64,000 bases of DNA, taken from assembly GCA_025358485.1 (NCBI GenBank), contig JANYJJ010000137.1, forward strand, positions 18,065 through 82,064, written 5' to 3'. The DNA comes from Burkholderiales bacterium (GTDB lineage Bacteria > Pseudomonadota > Gammaproteobacteria > Burkholderiales > Burkholderiaceae_C). Under the pieces are notes generated by a model. The model had not been told where the DNA came from, made no database searches, and saw only the letters and a list, made by a program, of their open reading frames with translations. Position numbers and translations under genes: made by a program. Below, one piece after another: positions 15,838 through 63,738 of the stretch (its first letter is position 1; the number at the start of each line of letters is the position of its first letter).

Positions 15838-16664
15838 TGGCCGCTTCAGCCTTCAACGCCAAGCCAACGGCCCTGCAAACGCTGTGGTGGCGTTTGCGCT
15901 CCATCGTCTTCATTTTGTGGATGGCGGTGACGGTGGTGCCGTGGGCGCTGGCGGTGTTGGTGTTCTCCATTTTCAAAAAAGGCGACCCGGTTTATTGGAT
16001 GTGTGTGGGCTGGTTGCGCACCGCCATTTGGGGTGCGCGGGTGATTTGCGGCGTGCATCACCGCATGAGCGGTTTGGAAAACTTAGACGCCGCGCATCGC
16101 GCTGGGGCTGTCATCGTGCTGCCCAAACACCAGTCCACCTGGGAGACCTTCGCCTTCCCTTGCTTGATGCCCCACCCTTTGGCCTACGTGTTCAAACGCG
16201 AGCTGCTTTACGTGCCGTTTTTTGGGTGGGCCATGGCGCGCATGGACATGATTCACATCGACCGCAGCAAGCGCGCAGACGCCTGGAAGCGGGTGGCCGA
16301 GCAAGGCCGCAAACACATGGCCCGCGGTACGTGGGTGATCATGTTTCCTGAAGGCACGCGCATTGCCCGCGGCGAAGCCGGCACCTACAAGCCAGGCGGC
16401 ACGCGGTTGGCCGTGGACACCGGCACGCCGGTGATGCCCATTGCCGTGAACTCGGCGGTGTGTTGGCCGCGCAAGTCGTTGATGCTGCGCCCCGGTGTGG
16501 TGGACTTGTCGATAGGCCCGCTGATATCGCCGGTGGGCCGCGAGCCAACGGAGATGATGCGTGAAGTTCAAGCGTGGATAGAGGGCGAAATGCACAGGCT
16601 GGATCCGACGGCCTACGCAGACGCTCACGCCGAAAAAAACAGCGTTGCAGCCGCACGCACCTGA
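15837..16664 (+). CDS. plsC: 1-acyl-sn-glycerol-3-phosphate acyltransferase
   Basis: LPKHQSTWETF (HX4D-type block) and FPEGTR motif. Follows gmhB, as is common in betaproteobacteria. Confidence 0.85.
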
Positions 16665-19096: not shown

Positions 19097-19185
19097 CTCC
19101 CTTCCCCTTAGACAGGCGGCGCAAATTCTCAACCCCCTTCCCCTCGACGGGGAAGGGTTGGGGAAGGGGTGAAATCGTCGAACAC
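19097..19185. repeat. truncated copy of the nested-palindromic element also found inside putA and uvrA
   Basis: CCCCTTCCCCTCGACGGGGAAGGGTTGGGGAAGGGGTGAAATCGTCGAACAC matches the left arm plus half the centre of the 55173-55285 copy. A degenerate arm lies at 19097-19116. Confidence 0.75.
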
Positions 19186-25721: not shown

Positions 25722-28700
25722 TCAGTGAAGGCCCGCCAACAGCGCCGCATTGCCACCCGCAGCCGCTGTGTTGATGGTCACTGTTTGCTCGGCGCAAAAG
25801 CGCAACAGGTAGTGCGGCCCGCCTGCTTTGGGGCCGGTGCCGCTCAGGCCTTCGCCGCCAAAGGGTTGCGAGCCGACCACCGCGCCAATCATGTTGCGGT
25901 TGATGTAAACGTTGCCGATGCGCGCCTGCGCTGCCAGGCGCATAGCACGGCTGTCGATGCGGGTTTGGATGCCCAGTGTCAAGCCGTAGCCGAGGGCGTT
26001 GATTTGCTGCATGACAGCATCGACATCGCCGCTCCAACGCACGACGTGCAGAACCGGGCCGAAGATTTCTTGTTGGACTTGACTGATGGAAGCGACTTCA
26101 AAGGCGATGGGGGAGATGAGGTGCGCGGGTTGGCCCCCTCCCCTTGACGGGGAGGGTTGGGGAGAGGTGAAAGCTCCCGACACTGACCGCAAGTGTTCAA
26201 CGCTCTCACCTCCTCCCCAACCCCCCTCCGTCAAGGGGGAGGGAGCCGTGCCGATCAATTTGGCCGTCTGGTGCAAACGAGCAATGTGCTCGCTGATGCC
26301 CTCAAACGCCTCCCCATCAATCACCGGCCCCACGTCTGTTGCGAGCAACGCCGGATCGCCCACGCGAAGCTCACTCAGCGCCCCACGAATCATGTCGATC
26401 ACGCCGTCGGCGATGCCATCGTGCACGCACAACAGACGCAGCGCCGAACAGCGCTGACCGGCCGAGCGGAACGCGCTTTGCACCACGGCGTCCACCACCT
26501 GTTCAGGCAGCGCCGTGCTGTCCACGATCATGGCGTTGATGCCACCTGTCTCGGCAATCAGCGGCACCATGGCGCCGTCGCGCGCAGCCAAACTTCGGTT
26601 GATGATTTTGGCGACCGCTGTCGAGCCGGTGAAGCACACACCCGCCGTGCGCGGGTCAGCCACCAACGCCGCGCCCACCACGTCACCCGCGCCATGCAGC
26701 AGCATCAGCGCGTCGCTCGGCACGCCGCACTCCACCAACAAATCAACAAAACGCTGCGCCACAAATGGCGTTTGCTCAGCCGGTTTGGCGGCCACGCTGT
26801 TGCCCGCCACCAAGGCCGCCACCACTTGGCCTGCAAAGATGGCCAAAGGGAAATTCCACGGGCTGATGCAGATGAACACGCCGCGCCCGTGCAAGTGCAA
26901 CTCGTTGCTTTCGCCAGTGGGGCCGGGCAGCGTTTGGGTGGCCAATTTGACTTCGGCTTGGTCAGCGTAGTAGCGGCAAAAGTCCACCGCCTCGCGCACT
27001 TCTGAAACACAGTCGCCGAGTGTTTTGTGAGCTTCGTTCACCAGCAAACCGCAGAACTCGGGCATGCGTGACTCCAGCGCGTCGGCCGCGCGGCGCAGCA
27101 CGTTGGCGCGGCCTTTCAGCGGCGTGACGCTCCAGCTTTGGAAGCCTTGATGCAAGCGCGCCATGGCCGCCGTCACATCGGACGGCGTGGCCTCAATGAC
27201 TGCCTGAATGCGCGTGGCGGCAACGGCTTCCAGCAATGGCTCGCGCTGCGCGATCACGCTCAAATCAACGCCTTTGGAATTGGCGCGGCCCGTGCTGCCG
27301 TTCCATCCAAACAACTCCATCGGCTGTGCAAACGCGGCCTGCGTGGCGGGTGTCAGCGGTGACGACAACAGCGCCTGCACATTCACGGTGCTGTCGGTGA
27401 GTTGATGCACAAACGAAGAGTTGGCCCCGTTCTCTAACAAGCGCCTGACCAAGTAAGCCAACAGGTCGCGGTGCTCACCCACAGGCGCATACACACGCAC
27501 CGCAATGGCAGGGTTGCGCATCACCTCCCGGTAGATTCCTTCGCCCATGCCGTGAAGGCGCTGCAACTCGAAGTGCGCGCCTTCCGCCGCATTCGCCATG
27601 TGCATGATGGCCGCAATGGTGCCGGCGTTGTGCGTCGCAAATTGCGGGTAAATCACGTCGCTGTGCGCCAACAAATCCTGTGCGCAAGCCAGGTAGGCGA
27701 TGTCGGTGTGGTGCTTGTGGGTGAACACCGGGTAGCCGCTCAAACCCAGCTCTTGGGCGCGTTTGATTTCACCGTCCCAATACGCACCTTTGACCAAACG
27801 CACCATGAAACGCAAGCCGTGTCGCTTGGCAATGCGCGCCACTTCTTGCGTCACGTCCGGCGCACGAAGTTGGTAGGCCTGCACCGCCAAGCCAAAGCCG
27901 CGCCACTGCGGAAAGTGCGCCGCGATGCGCGCGGCCAAAGCGTCCAGCACGTCGAGCGACAGCTCCAAGCGGTCGCTCTCTTCGGCGTCGATGGTCAGGT
28001 TGAGGTTGGCCTTCGCAGCAGGTTCGATGAGCTGCCACACGCGCGGCAATAGTTCGGAAAAAACGCGGTCGCGCTGGCTGTCTTCGTAGCGTGAAAACAA
28101 GGCGCTGAGTTTGATGGAAATGCCGTCGTTCGCGGTGGGATCGCCCGCAAAGTTGCTGCTGGCCGCCACGCTGAAAATCGCGTTCAAGTACGACGCCAAA
28201 TAACGCTGCGCATCGGCCTCGGTGCGCGCGCCTTCGCCCAACATGTCGTAGCTGAAGCGCAAGCCGCGCTGCGACTTGCGGGCCGACGCGGCCTCGCCCA
28301 TTGCCTCTTTGATGTTGCGGCCCAGCACAAACTGTTTGCCCAGCAATTGAATGGCGCGCACGGTCGCGGCCACCACGGTTTGCGCACCCAGCCGCTTGAA
28401 GATGCCTGCTTCACCACTTGCACCCGCGTCGTTGTCAGGCAAGAATTTCTTCGACATGGCAATCGCACTGGCCGACAACGACGCCAGCATCTGGTGCGGC
28501 CCACCCGAGCTGGCATCGAACTGCGCATGGCCCAATTGATCGGCCGTCAGCGCGACAGCGGTTTCCAAATCCGGCACACGCAACAGCGCCTCGGCCAAGC
28601 GCATCAAAGCCAAGCCTTCGGCGCTGGAGATCGGGTACTCGCGCAGCAAACTTTCCATCGCCCAAAACGGCGGAGGGTTGTCGCGCACGGCCTGCACCCA

Positions 28701-28844
28701 AGGCGTGGCAGCTTGCATGGCGAGCGGCCAATTCAGCGCGCCTTGCAGGCCAGCCATCAGCGTTTGCAAAATGCGCAACTCGTCGCTGGGCGCGGCGGTG
28801 TAAGGCGACGGAAGGCGTGCAGCAGCTGGTGGCAGGGTAAACAT
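25722..28844 (-). CDS. putA: bifunctional proline dehydrogenase / L-glutamate-gamma-semialdehyde dehydrogenase (no RHH DNA-binding domain)
   Basis: 1040 aa with a PRODH barrel then an ALDH domain (FTGSTAVAK, EIFGPVLHVVRW, GGEGLSGTGPKAGGPHYL). Carries an in-frame repeat insertion at ~26131-26247. Confidence 0.95.
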   Translation of the reverse strand: MFTLPPAAARLPSPYTAAPSDELRILQTLMAGLQGALNWPLAMQAATPWVQAVRDNPPPFWAMESLLREYPISSAEGLALMRLAEALLRVPDLETAVALTADQLGHAQFDASSGGPHQMLASLSASAIAMSKKFLPDNDAGASGEAGIFKRLGAQTVVAATVRAIQLLGKQFVLGRNIKEAMGEAASARKSQRGLRFSYDMLGEGARTEADAQRYLASYLNAIFSVAASSNFAGDPTANDGISIKLSALFSRYEDSQRDRVFSELLPRVWQLIEPAAKANLNLTIDAEESDRLELSLDVLDALAARIAAHFPQWRGFGLAVQAYQLRAPDVTQEVARIAKRHGLRFMVRLVKGAYWDGEIKRAQELGLSGYPVFTHKHHTDIAYLACAQDLLAHSDVIYPQFATHNAGTIAAIMHMANAAEGAHFELQRLHGMGEGIYREVMRNPAIAVRVYAPVGEHRDLLAYLVRRLLENGANSSFVHQLTDSTVNVQALLSSPLTPATQAAFAQPMELFGWNGSTGRANSKGVDLSVIAQREPLLEAVAATRIQAVIEATPSDVTAAMARLHQGFQSWSVTPLKGRANVLRRAADALESRMPEFCGLLVNEAHKTLGDCVSEVREAVDFCRYYADQAEVKLATQTLPGPTGESNELHLHGRGVFICISPWNFPLAIFAGQVVAALVAGNSVAAKPAEQTPFVAQRFVDLLVECGVPSDALMLLHGAGDVVGAALVADPRTAGVCFTGSTAVAKIINRSLAARDGAMVPLIAETGGINAMIVDSTALPEQVVDAVVQSAFRSAGQRCSALRLLCVHDGIADGVIDMIRGALSELRVGDPALLATDVGPVIDGEAFEGISEHIARLHQTAKLIGTAPSPLTEGGWGGGESVEHLRSVSGAFTSPQPSPSRGGGQPAHLISPIAFEVASISQVQQEIFGPVLHVVRWSGDVDAVMQQINALGYGLTLGIQTRIDSRAMRLAAQARIGNVYINRNMIGAVVGSQPFGGEGLSGTGPKAGGPHYLLRFCAEQTVTINTAAAGGNAALLAGLH
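26131..26247. repeat. nested-palindromic ~110-nt element inserted in frame in putA
   Basis: Left arm CCCCCTCCCCTTGACGGGGAGGGTTGGGGAGAGGTGA. The right arm is its inverted copy TCACCTCCTCCCCAACCCCCCTCCGTCAAGGGGGAGGG. Each arm contains its own small palindrome. Boundaries are +/- a few nt. Confidence 0.85.
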
Positions 28845-30380: not shown

Positions 30381-30552
30381 CTCGAACACACAAAAATCCC
30401 GTTTGGGCTGAGGTATCGAAGTCCTGCGCGACCGCAGCCCAACCGCGCTTGCTCATCCCGTTCGCCCGTCCCGTTCACCCATGCCGTTCCCCCGTCCCGT
30501 TCCCCCATCCCGTTCGCCCTGAGGTATCGAAGGGCCCAGCGAACACTTGCTC
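30381..30552. repeat. composite REP cluster: two REP units bracketing a tandem array
   Basis: Units TCGAACAC..TCCCGTTTGGGCTGAGGTATCGAAG and TCCCGTTCGCCCTGAGGTATCGAAG..GCGAACAC. Same family as 32294-32364 and 54032-54102. Confidence 0.8.
30455..30519. repeat. 13-nt tandem repeat x5
   Basis: ATCCCGTTCGCCC GTCCCGTTCACCC ATGCCGTTCCCCC GTCCCGTTCCCCC ATCCCGTTCGCCC. Confidence 0.9.
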
Positions 30553-32293: not shown

Positions 32294-32364
32294 AATCGAA
32301 CACAAACAAAACCCCGTCCGGGCTGAGGTGGTTTGTCCGACCGTCCTGAGGTGTCGAAGGAAGT
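32294..32364. repeat. ~70-nt REP unit
   Basis: Reverse complement is near-identical to 54032-54102 (TTCGAYACCTCAGGACGGTCGGACAARCCACCTCAG..CCGRACGG). Confidence 0.85.
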
Positions 32365-32629
32365 TCTGCTCTGTATTCATGTCTCGCTCAAAAGGGCGAG
32401 GTTGAATTTTTTCAGACTGACCCGCCAGCGATGCTTGGCCGAGTTCCCGTCTCGACTTGCAAAGACCGAGCGATCAGGATGTCGATGAGCCTCGATCCTC
32501 CTCATTCGCTGGTGAGATGCCGCAGAGGCGACTCTTGACCGAGCTCGCCTATGGATTCCCTCGCGCCGCTGAGCCCCATCACTTGCGGCTTAGCGTGTTT
32601 GATTGATCAAGGGGACTAAAATTCTCCAC

Positions 32630-53985: not shown

Positions 53986-54031
53986 GCCTACGTGGCTCTT
54001 TCGTCGCAAGTTCGAAGCAAATCAGTGTGGG

Positions 54032-54102
54032 ACTTCCTTCGATACCTCAGGACGGTCGGACAAGCCACCTCAGTCCGAACGGATTTCTACTTGGGTTCGA
54101 CG
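54032..54102. repeat. ~70-nt REP unit (inverse orientation of 32294-32364)
   Basis: ACTTCCTTCGATACCTCAGGACGGTCGGACAAGCCACCTCAGTCCGAACGGATTT...GGTTCGACG. Confidence 0.85.
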
Positions 54103-54140: not shown

Positions 54141-57100
54141 TTACCTTTTGAGCAACGGCAACAAATAGCGCCCGGTGTAGCTGGCTTCCGTGGCCGCCAC
54201 CGTTTCTGGCGTGCCCACGGCCAACACGGTGCCGCCACCGGCTCCGCCTTCGGGGCCCATGTCGATCAACCAGTCGGCGGTTTTGATGACGTCCAGGTTG
54301 TGCTCAATCACCACGATGGTGTTGCCTGCATCACGCAACTGGTGCAGCACTTTGAGCAGCAAAGCGATGTCGGCAAAGTGCAAACCGGTGGTGGGTTCGT
54401 CCAGGATGTAGAGCGTGCGGCCGGTGTCGCGCTTGCTCAACTCCAAGGCCAATTTCACGCGCTGCGCTTCGCCGCCGCTCAAGGTGGTCGCGCTTTGCCC
54501 CAGGCGGATGTAGCCCAAGCAAACGTCCAACAGCGTTTGCAATTTGCGCGCGATGTTGGGCACGGCGTTGAAGTAGGCGTAAGCGTCTTCCACCGTCATG
54601 CCCAGCACATCGGTGATGTTTTTGCCTTTGTACAAAACCTCCAAGGTTTCGCGGTTGTAGCGGCGGCCGTGGCAGACATCGCACTTCACATACACGTCGG
54701 GTAAAAAGTGCATCTCCACTTTCAGCACGCCGTCGCCCTGACAGGCTTCGCAGCGCCCGCCCGCCACGTTGAAGCTGAAGCGGCCGGGGCCGTAGCCGCG
54801 TTCTTTGGCGGTGTTCATTTCGGCAAACAGTTCGCGTATGGGCGTGAACATGCCGGTGTAGGTGGCCGGGTTGCTGCGCGGTGTGCGGCCTATGGGTGAT
54901 TGATCGACGTTGATGACTTTGTCGAAGGCTTCAATGCCTTCGATGGTGTCGTGCGCCTCGGGCTCGGTGTGGCTGCTGTAGAGCTTGCGCGCCACGGCGG
55001 CATACAGCGTGTCGTTCACCAGCGTGGATTTGCCCGAGCCCGACACGCCGGTCACGCAAGTGAGCAAGCCCACCGGAAACCCGACGCTGACGTTTTGCAG
55101 GTTGTTGCCACGCGCGTTGACAACACGCAGCCAGCCGATGTTGGGGTCGGGGGGGAAGAATCTGGATTTGCTCCCTCCCCCTTGACGGGGGAGGGTGGGG
55201 GTGGAGGTGGAAGCGTCGAACACAGAAGGTTCTACTTCCAACATCTCACCTCCTCCCCAGCCCTCCCCCGTCGAGGGGGAGGGGGCAACACGTTTAGCTG
55301 GCACTTCGATCTTTAGCGCTCCCGACAAATACCTGCCCGTCAACGACTCCACATTCGCCGCCACCTCATCCGGCGTGCCTTGCGCAATCACGCAGCCGCC
55401 GTGCACGCCGGCGCCCAGGCCCATGTCAATGACGTGGTCGGCTTGGCGAATGGCGTCTTCATCGTGCTCGACCACCAACACGCTGTTGCCGATGTCGCGC
55501 AGGTGGCGCAGCGTGCCCAGCAATCGGTCGTTGTCGCGCTGGTGCAGGCCTATGCTGGGCTCGTCCAGCACGTACATCACGCCCGTCAAGCCCGAGCCAA
55601 TTTGCGATGCCAAACGGATGCGCTGCGACTCGCCGCCACTCAGGGTGTCGGCGCTGCGGTCGAGGCTCAAATAGTTCAGCCCCACGTCGTTCAAAAACTT
55701 CAAGCGCGAGCGAATTTCCTTCACCACTTTGTCGGCGATGTCGGCCTTGGATCCCTTCAGCGTCAAGCCCTCGAAGTAGGCCAAACAGTCGCGCAGGGTG
55801 AAGTGCTCGACACGGTAAATCGGCTCGCCTTTGTTGTCCGCTTTGTTGTCTGCTTTATCGTCGTCGGCGCGTTGCAAAAACACATTGCGCGCCTCGCGGC
55901 GCAGGCGCGAGCCTTCGCAGTCGGGGCAAGGTTTGGCGGCTTGGTAGCGCGCCAAGTCTTCGCGCACGGCGGATGAGTCTGTTTCTTTGTAGCGCCGCTG
56001 AAAGCTGGGGATGATTCCTTCAAACGGGTGCATTCGTTTGACGCTGCGCGTTTTGCCTTTGGCGTTTTCGGCTTCGTAGGTGAAGCTGATGTCCTGCGTG
56101 CCAGAGCCAAACAGCAGCACTTGCTTGACGCTGTCGGTCAGGTCTTCAAACGGCGCGTCGATGTCAAACGCATAGTGCTTGGCCACGCTTTCCAACACCG
56201 AGAAGGTGTAAGCATTGCGCCGGTCCCAGCCCTTCACCGCGCCGCTGGCCATGCTCAGGCTGGGGAAGCCGACCACGCGCTGCGGGTCAAACACCGTCAC
56301 GTGGCCCAAGCCGTCGCAGCCGGTGCAAGCCCCCATCGGCGAGTTAAATGAAAACAAGCGCGGCTCCAACTCGCTGAGCGAATAGCTGCACACAGTGCAC
56401 GCAAACTTGCTAGAGAAAGTGTGTTCGGCGGGTTTGTCTTCTGGCTTGCCTGAAGGGCTGTCCATCTCCAACGCAACCGCGCGGCCATCGGCAATGCGCA
56501 TCGACGCCTCGAAGCTCTCGGCCAAGCGCTGCTGCAAGCCAGCGGCGGGGTCGGTGGTGACTTTGATGCGGTCTATCACCACGTCGATATCTTGCTTCTC
56601 GGTCTTCTTCAGCACGGGCAAATCGGCCGCCTCGAAGGTGGTGCCGTTGACGCGAAAACGCACATAGCCCTGGGCCTGCATGTCGGCAAACAATTCAGTG
56701 AATTCGCCTTTGCGATCACGCACCACCGGGGCCAAGATCATCAGGCGCGTGCCCTCGGGCAAAGCCAGCGCGGCGTCCACCATTTGGCTGACGCTTTGGG
56801 CTTGCAGCGGCACGTGGTGCTCGGGGCAAAACGGCGTGCCGGCGCGGGCGTACAACAAGCGCAGGTAATCGTGAATTTCAGTCACGGTGCCCACCGTGGA
56901 GCGCGGGTTGTGCGAGGTGGCTTTTTGCTCAATGCTGATGGCGGGCGACAAGCCTTCGATCACGTCCACATCGGGTTTGTCGAGCAGCTGCAAAAACTGC
57001 CGCGCGTAGGCCGACAAACTTTCCACGTAGCGCCGGTGCCCTTCGGCGTAAAGGGTGTCGAAAGCCAGACTCGACTTGCCCGACCCGCTGAGGCCGGTGA

Positions 57101-57209
57101 TGACCACCAGCTTATTGCGCGGAATGTCGAGGTCGATGTTTTTGAGGTTGTGCGTGCGTGCGCCGCGCACTCGAATCATGGGAGCTGAAGGATCGATTGG
57201 AGCAGGCAT
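54141..57209 (-). CDS. uvrA: excinuclease ABC subunit A
   Basis: [20 protein letters not shown], two ABC modules and zinc modules. 1022 aa, versus 940 in E. coli as I recall. Carries an in-frame repeat insertion at ~55173-55285. The start could also be the ATG at 57179. Confidence 0.97.
55173..55285. repeat. nested-palindromic ~113-nt element inserted in frame in uvrA
   Basis: CCCTCCCCCTTGACGGGGGAGGGTGGGGGTGGAGGTGGA - centre AGCGTCGAACACAGAAGGTTCTACTTCCAACATC - TCACCTCCTCCCCAGCCCTCCCCCGTCGAGGGGGAGGGGG. Confidence 0.85.
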
Positions 57210-63353: not shown

Positions 63354-63520
63354 TGATCAGGTTTGCGAAGGCTTAGGGCGCTGGTCCTCAGCTCGTCAAG
63401 TCCAATTCTGGACAGCGCCTGAACGTGCCGTCTTCGTTGAACGCGATGCGGCGCTCGCTGCGCAAACTGGCCACCATCTTGGGCAGTGCGACCACGCTGC
63501 CGGTTACCGCGACTTCGGTG

Positions 63521-63560
63521 GGGCATCGCTTGGCGCATCGCTTGGCGCATCGCTTGGCGC
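63521..63560. repeat. 12-nt tandem repeat x3.3
   Basis: GCATCGCTTGGC GCATCGCTTGGC GCATCGCTTGGC GCAC. Confidence 0.9.
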
Positions 63561-63738
63561 ACCACGTGCGACGTCAACATGAGACGCTCCCGCCGCTTCC
63601 AGCGCCAAATGCACAAGCTCGCCGCGCCTTTGGTTGGTGGGCCAACAGTGGTGTTCGCAGGCCGTGTAACGGGCGCTTTCTAAAGTCTGTTGTCGTTCAC
63701 TGAGCGACCAACTTGAACGGTAAAATGAAACAGGCGAA

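Follow-up and report, generated by a model that had tools for sequence, protein, structure and literature searches.

The presence of a long palindrome within the reading frame of a conserved repair gene raises the question of what the inserted sequence is, how it came to be there and how the host protein has accommodated it. The locus considered here lies in a 64,000-nt stretch of DNA from a Burkholderiales bacterium (contig JANYJJ010000137.1, positions 18,065 to 82,064; hereafter the window), in which the uvrA gene (54141..57209, minus strand) forms an intact ORF of 1022 aa. Its product is a full-length UvrA (E = 0 versus 2R6F), which can be aligned over its whole length with solved UvrA structures except at a single insertion. 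A preliminary description had proposed that the insertion is a nested palindromic element, also found elsewhere in the window, placed in frame in the inter-module linker, and the arms, their hairpins and the intact ORF bear this out. The inserted sequence is very probably a small non-autonomous palindromic repeat with triplex-motif architecture, which entered uvrA in frame and belongs to a family that is spread and filtered in the manner proposed below.

The element was correctly located at the outset, although its limits, originally given as 55173-55285, are revised here to 55170..55286 (minus strand); these 117 nt, a nested palindrome, correspond to 39 codons and to UvrA residues 642-680. 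The UvrA peptide quoted earlier matches the translation exactly, and the E. coli UvrA string given alongside it is also exact. The Geobacillus UvrA 2R6F aligns to residues 11-643 and 689-1022 of the query, its chain residue 625 flanking the gap on both sides, and the insertion point is the junction of the first and second ABC modules. The surplus at this single point between the two modules amounts to 45 residues (644-688), 39 of which are element-derived. The suggestion that the extra residues, put at about 40, are encoded exactly by the element thus holds for 39 residues but not for the stretch KSRFFPPD (eight codons at 55146..55169, minus strand; residues 681-688), which is linker lying outside the palindrome, lacks a counterpart in Geobacillus UvrA and is conserved across the inserted clade. 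Only one of the three coding-strand frames is stop-free across the element, and as its length is also a multiple of three, it is read through as approximately 39 residues that lengthen a variable surface linker. The resulting peptide is rich in Pro, Ser and Gly. In an AF2 model of the whole UvrA, which is poor (mean pLDDT 53) and was used solely for local contrast at the insert, residues 646-691 have pLDDT values of 26-35 and no secondary structure, versus 80-90 in the neighbouring blocks.

In layout the element resembles a REP doublet: two arms in inverted orientation flank a variable centre of about 40 nt. In the uvrA copy, the arms (55168-55209 and 55247-55288) are 42 nt each, show 88% complementarity and each contain their own perfect 9-bp hairpin. 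The arm plan comprises a 9-bp C/G hairpin, 3 nt and then a G tract that mirrors the purine strand of the hairpin. Arm 1 (55173..55207, plus strand) begins with the hairpin CCCTCCCCC-TTGAC-GGGGGAGGG at 55173-55195, divided into Y9 (55173-55181), the loop TTGAC (55182-55186) and R9 (55187-55195), and continues with the 3-nt linker (55196-55198) and the mirror G tract GGGTGGAGG (55199-55207). Arm 2 (55249..55283, minus strand) has its hairpin, CCCTCCCCC-GTCGA-GGGGGAGGG, at 55261-55283 and reads CCCTCCCCC-TCGAC-GGGGGAGGG-CTG-GGGAGGAGG on the minus strand. The centre (55208..55248, no strand) carries at 55212-55223 the subfamily motif AGCGTCGAACAC, which is common to the uvrA copy, both other copies in the window and those of relatives.

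Both structural parts of the arm leave a trace in the family alignment. The hairpin exhibits Watson-Crick covariation at positions -7/+11 (CG 99, TA 54), and the loop TYGAC is conserved. Among 108 unique arms, the mirror is 94.4% triplet-compatible at the 3-nt linker versus at most 68% at other spacings, and at A positions the corresponding values are 96.1% and at most 43%; the nine stem haplotypes each have their own matching mirror. Each arm in the window contains one incompatible triplet, except in the copy at 19 kb, which has none. A check on transcript folding, proposed earlier, returned a strong fold: a 137-nt uvrA stretch reaches -91.7 kcal/mol as RNA (z = -9.9) and -49.9 kcal/mol as DNA (z = -8.9). 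An Rfam search of the window yielded no family at the gathering score, and a permissive E-value gave solely generic miRNA-precursor hairpin models, all far below threshold, which indicates that the element is no described RNA family.

The window contains three copies of the element, in uvrA, in putA and, as a half copy, between genes. The putA gene (25722..28844, minus strand; proline dehydrogenase / P5C dehydrogenase, 1040 aa) harbours the second full copy at 26133..26246 (minus strand), 114 nt or 38 codons placed in frame in the aldehyde-dehydrogenase part. As described previously, this copy lies in the opposite element orientation to that in uvrA and is likewise read through on the minus strand, the coding strand and the arm frame being the same. 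The third, partial copy (19130..19185, plus strand) comprises one arm, CCCTTCCCC-TCGAC-GGGGAAGGG-TTG-GGGAAGGGG, with an exact mirror, and the centre motif ATCGTCGAACAC; it is situated between a Spherulin4/PEP-CTERM gene and a DUF3047 gene. The element had been regarded as translatable in both orientations, and both orientations are indeed read through; the single open coding-strand frame in uvrA speaks against a special adaptation to this end. Since the arms are palindromic, both strands begin with the same sequence, and two-way translatability is the survivorship of one tolerated frame with lengths that are multiples of three.

These copies also bear on the simplest account of the insert, namely a low-complexity expansion within the gene or an assembly artefact whose likeness to other loci is coincidental. 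A Pro/Gly/Ser-rich peptide in a linker of naturally variable length (24-43 residues in Burkholderiales UvrA without inserts) would suit such an origin, but the same 40-nt arm and centre motif recur in putA, in the window spacer and at unrelated intergenic sites of dozens of genomes. The arm motif occurs five times in the window versus 0.00 expected and never arose in shuffles, and the insertion recurs in assemblies made independently (NCBI, JGI and ENA), which leaves this account with a negligible probability.

Beyond the window, the arm consensus is shared by more than 88 full copies from MAGs of Beta-, Alpha- and Deltaproteobacteria, Nitrospiria, Binatia, Chloroflexota, Zixibacteria and Clostridia. 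The location of two of the three window copies within genes had been taken as a trait of the family, which proves unrepresentative: in the cross-phylum sample, 3 of 88 full copies are genic (one in the MutL interdomain linker, two in an NRPS A-domain loop) and about 97% are intergenic. Five of eight long ORFs that span copies in other genomes (L001, L004, L020, L039, L110) were discarded as spurious or as intergenic read-through. In the family consensus, an arm of the CCTTCCCCC..GGGGGAAGG type is combined with one of the CCCTCCCCC..GGGGGAGGG type; the uvrA and putA copies of BUSI22 are such A/B pairs, and both arms of the window uvrA copy are of the B kind. Several other searches added little: a plasmid blastn gave one partial match, a profile search with the 41-aa element peptide one candidate and no scored match, and a metagenome scan with the loose pattern GGTGNARNCGTYGAACAC 120 loci, none of them real copies. 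An exhaustive search of representative proteins returned 20 matches, mostly short spurious ORFs, and is unfit as a census because clustering at 50% hides inserted variants. Exact strings of the arm motif and of its peptides were not found in the literature.

The uvrA insertion goes back to the common ancestor of uncultured Burkholderiales that form a clade of roughly genus rank. It is common to all 17 cluster members and to P0002 and P0003 (UvrA at least 90% identical), and its carriers form one clade; because every UvrA at or above 90% identity is inserted, the insertion is old and vertically inherited. In the clade at 85% identity the insertion is absent and the linker is different and shorter, so that it provides no clean empty site from which the element ends and the absence of target site duplications (TSDs) at uvrA could be read directly. 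The preliminary description had considered that relatives devoid of the repeat family might carry the same insertion. Relatives do share it, throughout the clade of at least 90% identity, but the repeat family is not absent, with intergenic copies in the window and in many genomes.

Since the insertion, UvrA has been under strong purifying selection; a loop of PutA took up a copy in the same way. The UvrA flanks of the insert exhibit a dN/dS of 0.04-0.06 at a dS of 0.35-0.51, and the insert itself a dN of approximately 0.21 and a dN/dS of approximately 0.33. The eight orthologous uvrA inserts measure 123, 144, 201, 123, 183, 204, 159 and 159 nt, all multiples of three and all without stops, which argues that uvrA is still functional and that the insert is translated, as is probable from the conservation of the frame. 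An intein, an intron and translational bypass were each considered for the uvrA insert and rejected, because its indels are invariably stop-free multiples of three.

Retention across the clade for a dS of about 0.4-0.5, together with an insert dN/dS below 1, may be taken as a sign that the insert is useful, either as a lineage-specific linker module of UvrA and PutA or as a nucleic-acid structure that adjusts expression or makes repair genes adaptively unstable. The hairpins, which are perfect in six of the eight orthologues and show a compensatory C-G to T-A change between two types, are consistent with this possibility. Hairpins have decayed in P0003, P0127 and the P0123 group, so that maintenance of the structure is not universal. 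The peptide changes about 10 times as fast as the remaining UvrA and varies freely in length, it is predicted to be unstructured, close UvrA relatives lack it, and the insert has decayed or shrunk in several lineages, in UvrA (P0123 group) as well as in PutA (P0149, P0150, P0152). Repair genes appear repeatedly among the hosts (UvrA at least five times, a second UvrA-family site and MutL), the same tendency is seen for REPs (Di Nocera 2013, PMC3733652), and the motif has been linked to local instability (Holder 2015, PMC4666352); the excess of repair genes could, however, merely mirror large multidomain proteins with disordered linkers. A useful insert is therefore considered improbable. A broader speculation, that triplex-motif palindromes are targeted to or selectively retained in repair genes, are kept intact by copy exchange and serve as non-B-DNA modules that alter the expression of repair proteins or vary their length in frame, as contingency elements of genome maintenance, is likewise considered improbable.

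On the preferred reading, a palindromic repeat spread and filtered by selection, copies may land at many places, with selection removing nearly all genic ones and leaving survivors at a few permissive protein sites, in an open frame and at a length that is a multiple of three. Such filtering would explain the reuse of the same two sites by related subfamilies in other lineages. The published TMECO pattern is CCCTCNCCC N3-6 GGGNGAGGG N3 GGGNGAGGG, with one mismatch permitted (Holder 2015, PMC4666352). Pairs that fit it exactly sit in this UvrA linker in no fewer than four further clades, and REP-like inserts occupy the same PutA site in P0153, P0170, P0195 and P0258. The presence of a sister subfamily at both positions marks them as recurrent permissive spots. 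Once resident, the palindrome may act as an unstable DNA structure whose hairpin units are added and lost in frame, and it seems to swap sequence with other genomic copies: site patterns group by lineage over locus by 7 to 3 and one of the centres has a mosaic composition, so that copies of one genome appear to exchange sequence, as far as so few sites can tell and provided that contigs of one sample represent one genome. As a separate observation, inserts lengthen proteins, yield spurious 'hypothetical' ORFs and may fuse neighbouring genes (P0269).

With respect to the mode of spread, a size of about 117 nt, terminal inverted repeats, many dispersed copies and the lack of own coding capacity are all features of a classical MITE, i.e. 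a deletion derivative of an IS mobilised in trans by a DDE transposase whose recognition sites are the terminal inverted repeats and whose activity leaves TSDs. Around 89 copies, however, direct repeats of 2-9 bp show no excess at any boundary offset, and clustering of neighbouring genes at 87 loci revealed TctC receptors, ABC binding proteins and similar genes but no recurrent transposase family. Moreover, in 180 arms, information content ends 1-3 nt outside the stem, and conservation is centred on the hairpin and mirror without an extended terminal repeat. An origin as a MITE is accordingly regarded as very unlikely. The lack of TSDs and a conservation centred on the hairpin favour a single-strand, hairpin-recognising (HUH/RAYT-like) route or recombination over a DDE transposase, and the repeat may have spread by either of the two. 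No RayT homologue was found in the window or in 1.06 Mb of fetched loci, and the ORFs beside the third copy, examined as candidates, are not RAYTs. The one exception is a Y1_Tnp (PF01797) gene at locus L059, at a distance of 1 kb from a copy; it has no repeats on both its sides, and its position could be a coincidence. A GTAG or CGTC tag at the hairpin foot is absent as a conserved feature of the 180 arms, GTAG being seen only beside Deefgea copies.

Palindromes inserted in frame, uvrA included, have been published before (Ogata 2000; Di Nocera 2013). The present case brings the translation of palindromes within conserved genes, described for Rickettsia and for tagged REPs, to free-living, GC-rich Burkholderiales. 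It also adds translated copies to the BoxC/triplex-motif class, reported from E. coli as strictly intergenic. The clade also constitutes a natural time series, in which one old insertion inside an essential gene can be followed in at least eight descendants, with purifying selection around the insert and, within it, hairpin units gained and lost in frame, decay in some lineages and, in others, what appears to be renewal from further copies. The reused UvrA and PutA positions offer experimentally useful permissive sites and pose the question of targeting versus selective filtering. For genome annotation, such inserts matter through inflated protein length, spurious ORFs and gene fusions.

Among known systems, DDE-type MITEs such as Correia, ERIC and Nezha differ from the window family, for which neither TSDs nor a recurrent nearby transposase were found. 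REPIN-RAYT systems (Bertels and Rainey 2011, PMC3116915; PMC3337134) are closer: the window element likewise has two inverted hairpin units with a short spacer that can form one long hairpin, half copies as decay products (the copy at 19 kb), no TSDs and genome-specific variants. It differs from REPINs in lacking a conserved GTAG head and in its 40-nt arm with an additional mirror tract, and no RAYT was found beside its copies or in the 1.06 Mb of fetched loci; the cross-phylum conservation of this arm is unusual for REPINs.

The analogy to Rickettsia palindromic elements (RPEs) drawn in the preliminary description is apt as a description of behaviour. RPEs are described as palindromic repeats of ~100-150 bp that are in frame, translated and located at fold-tolerant positions (Ogata 2000, Science 290:347; cited in PMC10969869 and PMC3733652), and the window element similarly sits in frame in conserved genes at tolerant positions, the host gene being still functional. 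The hosts, however, are obligate intracellular Rickettsia in one case and free-living Burkholderiales and many phyla in the other, and about half of RPE copies are genic, versus about 3% in the window family. The arms of the window element are of the triplex-motif type, and RPEs are compared here by description; membership is not claimed because host phylum and arm architecture differ.

REPs, whose published insertions in uvrA (PMC3733652) were overlooked in the earlier reading, are mostly extragenic palindromes, a minority of which lie in ORFs and encode 20-80 extra residues (Di Nocera 2013, PMC3733652). DNA-repair genes are prominent among their hosts, the uvrA genes listed being those of Thioalkalivibrio (two REP dimers) and both of Opitutus terrae, and in Xanthomonas recB different REPs occur at about one site (PMC3733652). 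The window element resembles them as a short, mostly extragenic palindrome with a coding minority and uvrA among its hosts. The REP families of Di Nocera, De Gregorio and Rocco carry a GTAG or CGTC tag, and CGTC stems start with A/T pairs (PMC3733652); the window element has neither the tag nor stems of this kind, and it possesses a mirror tract that is not described for REP families. Its uvrA site is also unlike those of Oter_2709 (O. terrae uvrA, 1995 aa), for which REP inserts are placed at 638-644 and 1601-1623 (PMC3733652).

The closest structural match is with the BoxC/PIT/TMECO intrastrand triplex-motif repeats, known from E. coli and further Proteobacteria, an arm architecture that had likewise escaped the earlier reading. 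These repeats were reportedly treated before by Bachellier in the 1990s and by Hoyne and Maher in 2000. The TMECO plan comprises a C-rich 9 nt, a loop of 3-6 nt, a complementary G-rich 9 nt, a 3-nt loop and a second G-rich 9 nt able to form G*G.C, A*A.T and T*A.T triplets (PMC4666352). The five-part arm of the window element follows this plan, with a putative triplex suggested by covariation. E. coli TMECO forms inverted A+B arm pairs at five sites (PMC4666352), and inverted pairs of two arm types are equally characteristic of the family consensus here. The triplex motif has been tied to local instability and indels (Holder 2015, PMC4666352), which is paralleled by the in-frame length polymorphism of the inserts, and no transposon association is known either for BoxC/PIT/TMECO (PMC4666352) or for the window element. 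Each uvrA arm departs from the TMECO pattern by two mismatches and one putA arm by three, failing the one-mismatch criterion, so that the window element is a variant of the architecture outside the TMECO sequence family; in the sister subfamily of P0071 and P0022 UvrA, the pattern is exact or has one stem mismatch. The stem of the window family is CCYTCCCCC, with one or two A's off centre, in contrast to CCCTCNCCC in TMECO. Finally, TMECO is reported to be always intergenic in E. coli MG1655 (PMC4666352), whereas the window copies are translated in uvrA and putA and the family to which they belong ranges beyond Proteobacteria.

The uvrA gene of the window (54141..57209, minus strand) encodes a protein of 1022 aa and hosts, within its reading frame, a nested palindrome of 117 nt (55170-55286). 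The arms of this copy (55168-55209 and 55247-55288) are 42 nt each and 88% complementary, and each contains a perfect 9-bp hairpin, CCCTCCCCC-TTGAC-GGGGGAGGG in arm 1 (55173-55195) and CCCTCCCCC-GTCGA-GGGGGAGGG in arm 2 (55261-55283). Five instances of the arm motif are present in the window, against none in 100 shuffles. The region is also predicted to fold far more stably than shuffled controls, at -91.7 kcal/mol (z = -9.9) for RNA and with z = -8.9 for DNA. The putA gene, a 1040-aa ORF on the same strand as uvrA, contains a second full copy of 114 nt (26133-26246) with the element in the opposite orientation. A third copy, consisting of one arm and the centre motif (19130-19185), falls in the intergenic spacer that separates a Spherulin4/PEP-CTERM gene from a DUF3047 gene. 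The preliminary description of an in-frame palindromic repeat in the uvrA linker and in putA was real and right in its core reading; the UvrA peptide that it gave for the window and the E. coli UvrA string that it cited are both exact.

The window also contains repeats of other kinds. An unrelated dispersed repeat of about 80 nt, which includes CTGAGGTGG..CCGACCGTCCTGAGGT.TCGAAGGAAGT, is present at 32296-32373 (+) and 54023-54100 (-) with 84% identity between both copies, one of which is located 40 nt past the stop codon of uvrA. Short tandem arrays are found at 30454-30518 (13-nt period, CATCCCGTTCGCC-like, 5 units) and 63519-63566 (12-nt period, TGGCGCATCGCT, 4 units).

Geobacillus UvrA (PDB 2R6F) aligns to residues 11-643 and 689-1022 of the window protein, and since chain residue 625 flanks both segments, 45 residues (644-688) have been added at a single point, the junction of the first and second ABC modules. 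The element contributes 39 added residues (642-680), and eight more in the linker, KSRFFPPD, are lineage-specific. In an AlphaFold2 model of poor overall quality (mean pLDDT 53), positions 646-691 have no secondary structure and a pLDDT of 26-35, with blocks of 80-90 on either side. The window comes from an uncultured member of the Burkholderiales close to Rhizobacter and Piscinibacter. The insertion is present at the same site in all UvrAs that are at least 90% identical (17 cluster members and the homologues P0002 and P0003), whose NCBI, JGI and ENA assemblies are independent of one another. In the next clade, at 85% identity, these two anchor motifs are separated by a plain stretch of 37 residues. 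As the insertion-bearing proteins form one clade in the tree, one ancestral insertion into uvrA is the simplest reading.

Between inserted lineages, uvrA outside the insert shows a dN/dS of 0.04-0.06 at a dS of 0.35-0.51, and the insert itself a dN of ~0.21 and a dN/dS of ~0.33. At the DNA level, all eight orthologous inserts (123, 144, 201, 123, 183, 204, 159 and 159 nt) are stop-free and multiples of three in length, and only one of the three coding-strand frames of the element is open throughout. These sequence features point to translation of the insert and to a uvrA gene that has remained functional. An artefact, a pseudogene, or an element that is excised or bypassed is unlikely in view of the purifying selection, the lengths divisible by three, the lack of stops and the independent assemblies.

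The orthologous inserts have a homologous centre in common and so descend from one event, but their arms are strikingly different. In the hairpin stem, a compensatory change from C-G to T-A distinguishes two arm types, CCCTCCCCC..GGGGGAGGG..GGAGGTGA (type I) and CCTTCCCC..GGGGGAAGG..GGGATGGGGGTG (type II). Irrespective of arm type, three homologues (P0126, P0121 and P0124) have a small hairpin within the loop of one arm or of both. Hairpin units are also repeated in tandem and in frame, with units of 36 nt in uvrA (two to three copies; P0002, P0003, P0124 and P0127) and of 33 nt in putA (up to three; P0142 and P0145), for example at L116 (11958-12020) and L128 (~16400-16600), and decayed hairpins are seen in P0003, P0127 and the P0123 group. 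Each tandem unit adds 11-12 residues, so the UvrA and PutA insert sites are length-hypervariable. This in-frame polymorphism agrees with the local indel instability associated with TMECO (BoxC/PIT), the intrastrand triplex-motif repeats of E. coli (Holder et al. 2015, PMC4666352). The same arm type is shared by uvrA and putA in L128, in the BUSI22 sample (same contig or sample) and in the window; among informative sites over the element, seven group the copies by lineage, three by locus and three in the remaining way, and one centre is a mosaic of the putA and uvrA types. These few sites, with their same-sample assignment, tentatively suggest that the uvrA and putA copies exchange sequence with other copies in concerted evolution.

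Both host sites have been used repeatedly. A different insert (GPHPxPLPQAGEG...PLPLAGEGWGEG) occupies the same UvrA linker in 8 of the 120 closest UvrAs, which fall into at least four separate clades interleaved with uninserted sequences in the tree; two of these inserts, examined as DNA, are inverted pairs of motifs whose third strands face outward and which match the TMECO pattern either perfectly or with a single mismatch in the stem. In PutA of the window's clade (83-90% identity), the insert is found at one site, reduced to shrunken remnants in P0149, P0150 and P0152, and that position is occupied in other lineages by REP-like inserts of the sister type; the usual uninserted PutA has a 60-residue stretch between anchors there. 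Either these are rare positions that tolerate such DNA or the element has a sequence preference. In uvrA and putA alike, the junction is preceded by Ala-Pro codons (GCNCCN) resembling the element's own end, a possible sign of microhomology.

The arms being palindromic, either strand of the element has GCYCCCTCCCCCTYGACGGGGGAGGG.. at its start and the complement of it at its end. In the arm consensus, two of the three frames are shut by TGA codons, which lie within TTGACG and GGTGAG, and the remaining frame starts Pro-Ser-Pro-Leu/Ser-Thr-Gly-Glu-Gly-Trp-Gly-Gly-Gly and finishes ..Leu-Pro-Arg-Gln-Gly-Gly-Gly. That both orientations read alike follows directly from the sequence plus survivorship. 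The proposal that the element is translatable both ways holds inasmuch as the uvrA and putA copies are opposite and both read, but the similar reading is no evidence of design for translation.

A scan for CCCCTYGACGG-N60-90-CCGTCRAGGGG in one genome per species returned at least 114 loci, and among the matches listed about 88 are full copies of the same design, often several per genome, in Beta-, Alpha- and Deltaproteobacteria, Nitrospiria, Binatia, Chloroflexota, Zixibacteria and a Clostridia MAG. The conserved span is ~40 nt per arm, ending 1-3 nt outside the hairpin, and the centre is variable. The hairpin shows Watson-Crick covariation at -7/+11 (CG 99, TA 54), -9/+13 and -5/+9, and exactly 3 nt beyond it lies a G tract of 9 nt that mirrors its purine strand. 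At this 3-nt spacing, triplet compatibility (G*G.C, A*A.T, T*A.T) reaches 94.4% of positions, compared with at most 68% at any other, and 96.1% at A positions, compared with at most 43% elsewhere. Each of nine stem haplotypes has its own matching mirror tract, and three-way covariation extends to all family arms (L001-L114; window 19135-19169, 55173-55207 and 55249-55283), with an odds ratio of 436 for A-with-A. An intramolecular purine-motif triplex would be expected to leave this signature, the joint variation of a 9-nt pyrimidine stem, its purine partner and a mirror purine tract. A syntenic block of at least five genes, including an FAD oxidoreductase and an S9/S33-type hydrolase, is shared by five loci labelled Syntrophobacter, Deltaproteobacteria and Binatia (L022, L024, L061, L097 and L111), with a copy in each, which could reflect long persistence at an orthologous intergenic site.

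The family is overwhelmingly extragenic. Among the matches listed, 8 of 88 copies from other genomes fall in long ORFs; domain searches assigned five of these to intergenic read-through or spurious ORFs and left three as genuine. The occurrence of two of three copies in genes, true of the window, is consequently atypical. In a Burkholderiales MAG (SOY_6_C; L055:939-3122, minus strand), the MutL linker between DNA_mis_repair and MutL_C contains a full copy with an extra arm, read in the same PLTGEGWDGG frame; MutL is another DNA-repair protein with a disordered linker. Two NRPS copies in deltaproteobacterial MAGs (L034:1376-7477, minus strand, and L087:1-7752, plus strand) occupy one and the same loop in the C-terminal subdomain of the adenylation domain and use a second frame (PPPRRGR..VGV..SPVKGEG), open only with a TCGAC loop. 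A search of 1.84 billion representative proteins with a profile built from the two window peptides gave 20 matches, mostly short false ORFs. One, P0262 (163 aa), is a fragment of a UvrA-family protein and has the insert at a second site, which precedes the helix corresponding to residues 479-527 of the window UvrA; in another, P0269 (626 aa), a TrhO-like rhodanese protein appears to be joined to an RluA-type pseudouridine synthase via a stop-free copy, a possible gene fusion by read-through of the element.

With regard to mobility, no target-site duplication of 2-9 bp was detectable in 89 copies at any boundary offset tried, no recurrent transposase lies beside the copies, where the adjoining genes are of ordinary kinds (TctC receptors, ABC binding proteins, PrpD and others), and a homologue search with E. 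coli RayT across the window and 1.06 Mb of retrieved loci was negative. The sole hint of a hairpin-recognising enzyme, which may be coincidence, is a 313-aa IS200-like Y1 transposase (PF01797, Y1_Tnp) with a C-terminal HTH, 1.05 kb from a copy in a groundwater deltaproteobacterial MAG (L059:2390-3331, plus strand), together with a 30-aa fragment of a similar gene in L111. Like REP doublets and REPINs, the element has two inverted hairpin units, half copies as remnants and no duplication, although the defining GTAG head of REPINs is absent. Any REPIN-like mode of spread is therefore putative.

In the literature, including an exact-string search, we found neither this stem-and-loop variant nor its cross-phylum spread described, and no report that triplex-motif pairs are translated within genes, that the UvrA inter-module linker and the PutA site are used repeatedly, or that one such insertion was traced through a clade. 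The uvrA insert offers a natural system well suited to following what becomes of structured selfish DNA in an essential gene, but it would not surprise a specialist in bacterial repeats. In-frame palindromic repeats in genes and the triplex-motif architecture are both already published. In-frame palindromic repeats occur in conserved Rickettsia genes (Ogata 2000, as summarised in PMC10969869). Intragenic REPs and REP dimers were reported in several species by Di Nocera et al. (PMC3733652), in excess in replication and repair genes, with uvrA of Thioalkalivibrio and Opitutus named as hosts and different REPs at about the same site of Xanthomonas recB; their GTAG and CGTC families differ from the element. 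TMECO repeats occur 3610 times in 262 proteobacterial genomes, form inverted A+B pairs at five E. coli sites, are always intergenic in MG1655 and have no transposon link, and their triplex folding was demonstrated by CD, NMR and DMS footprinting (PMC4666352). That report does not describe the present sequence variant or phylum range. The five-part TMECO layout (C-rich 9 nt, loop 3-6 nt, G-rich 9 nt, loop 3 nt, G-rich 9 nt) is identical to that of the element arms. Since the window arms each have two mismatches to the TMECO sequence pattern, we treat the element, on its sequence, as a variant of the BoxC/TMECO architecture distinct from TMECO proper.
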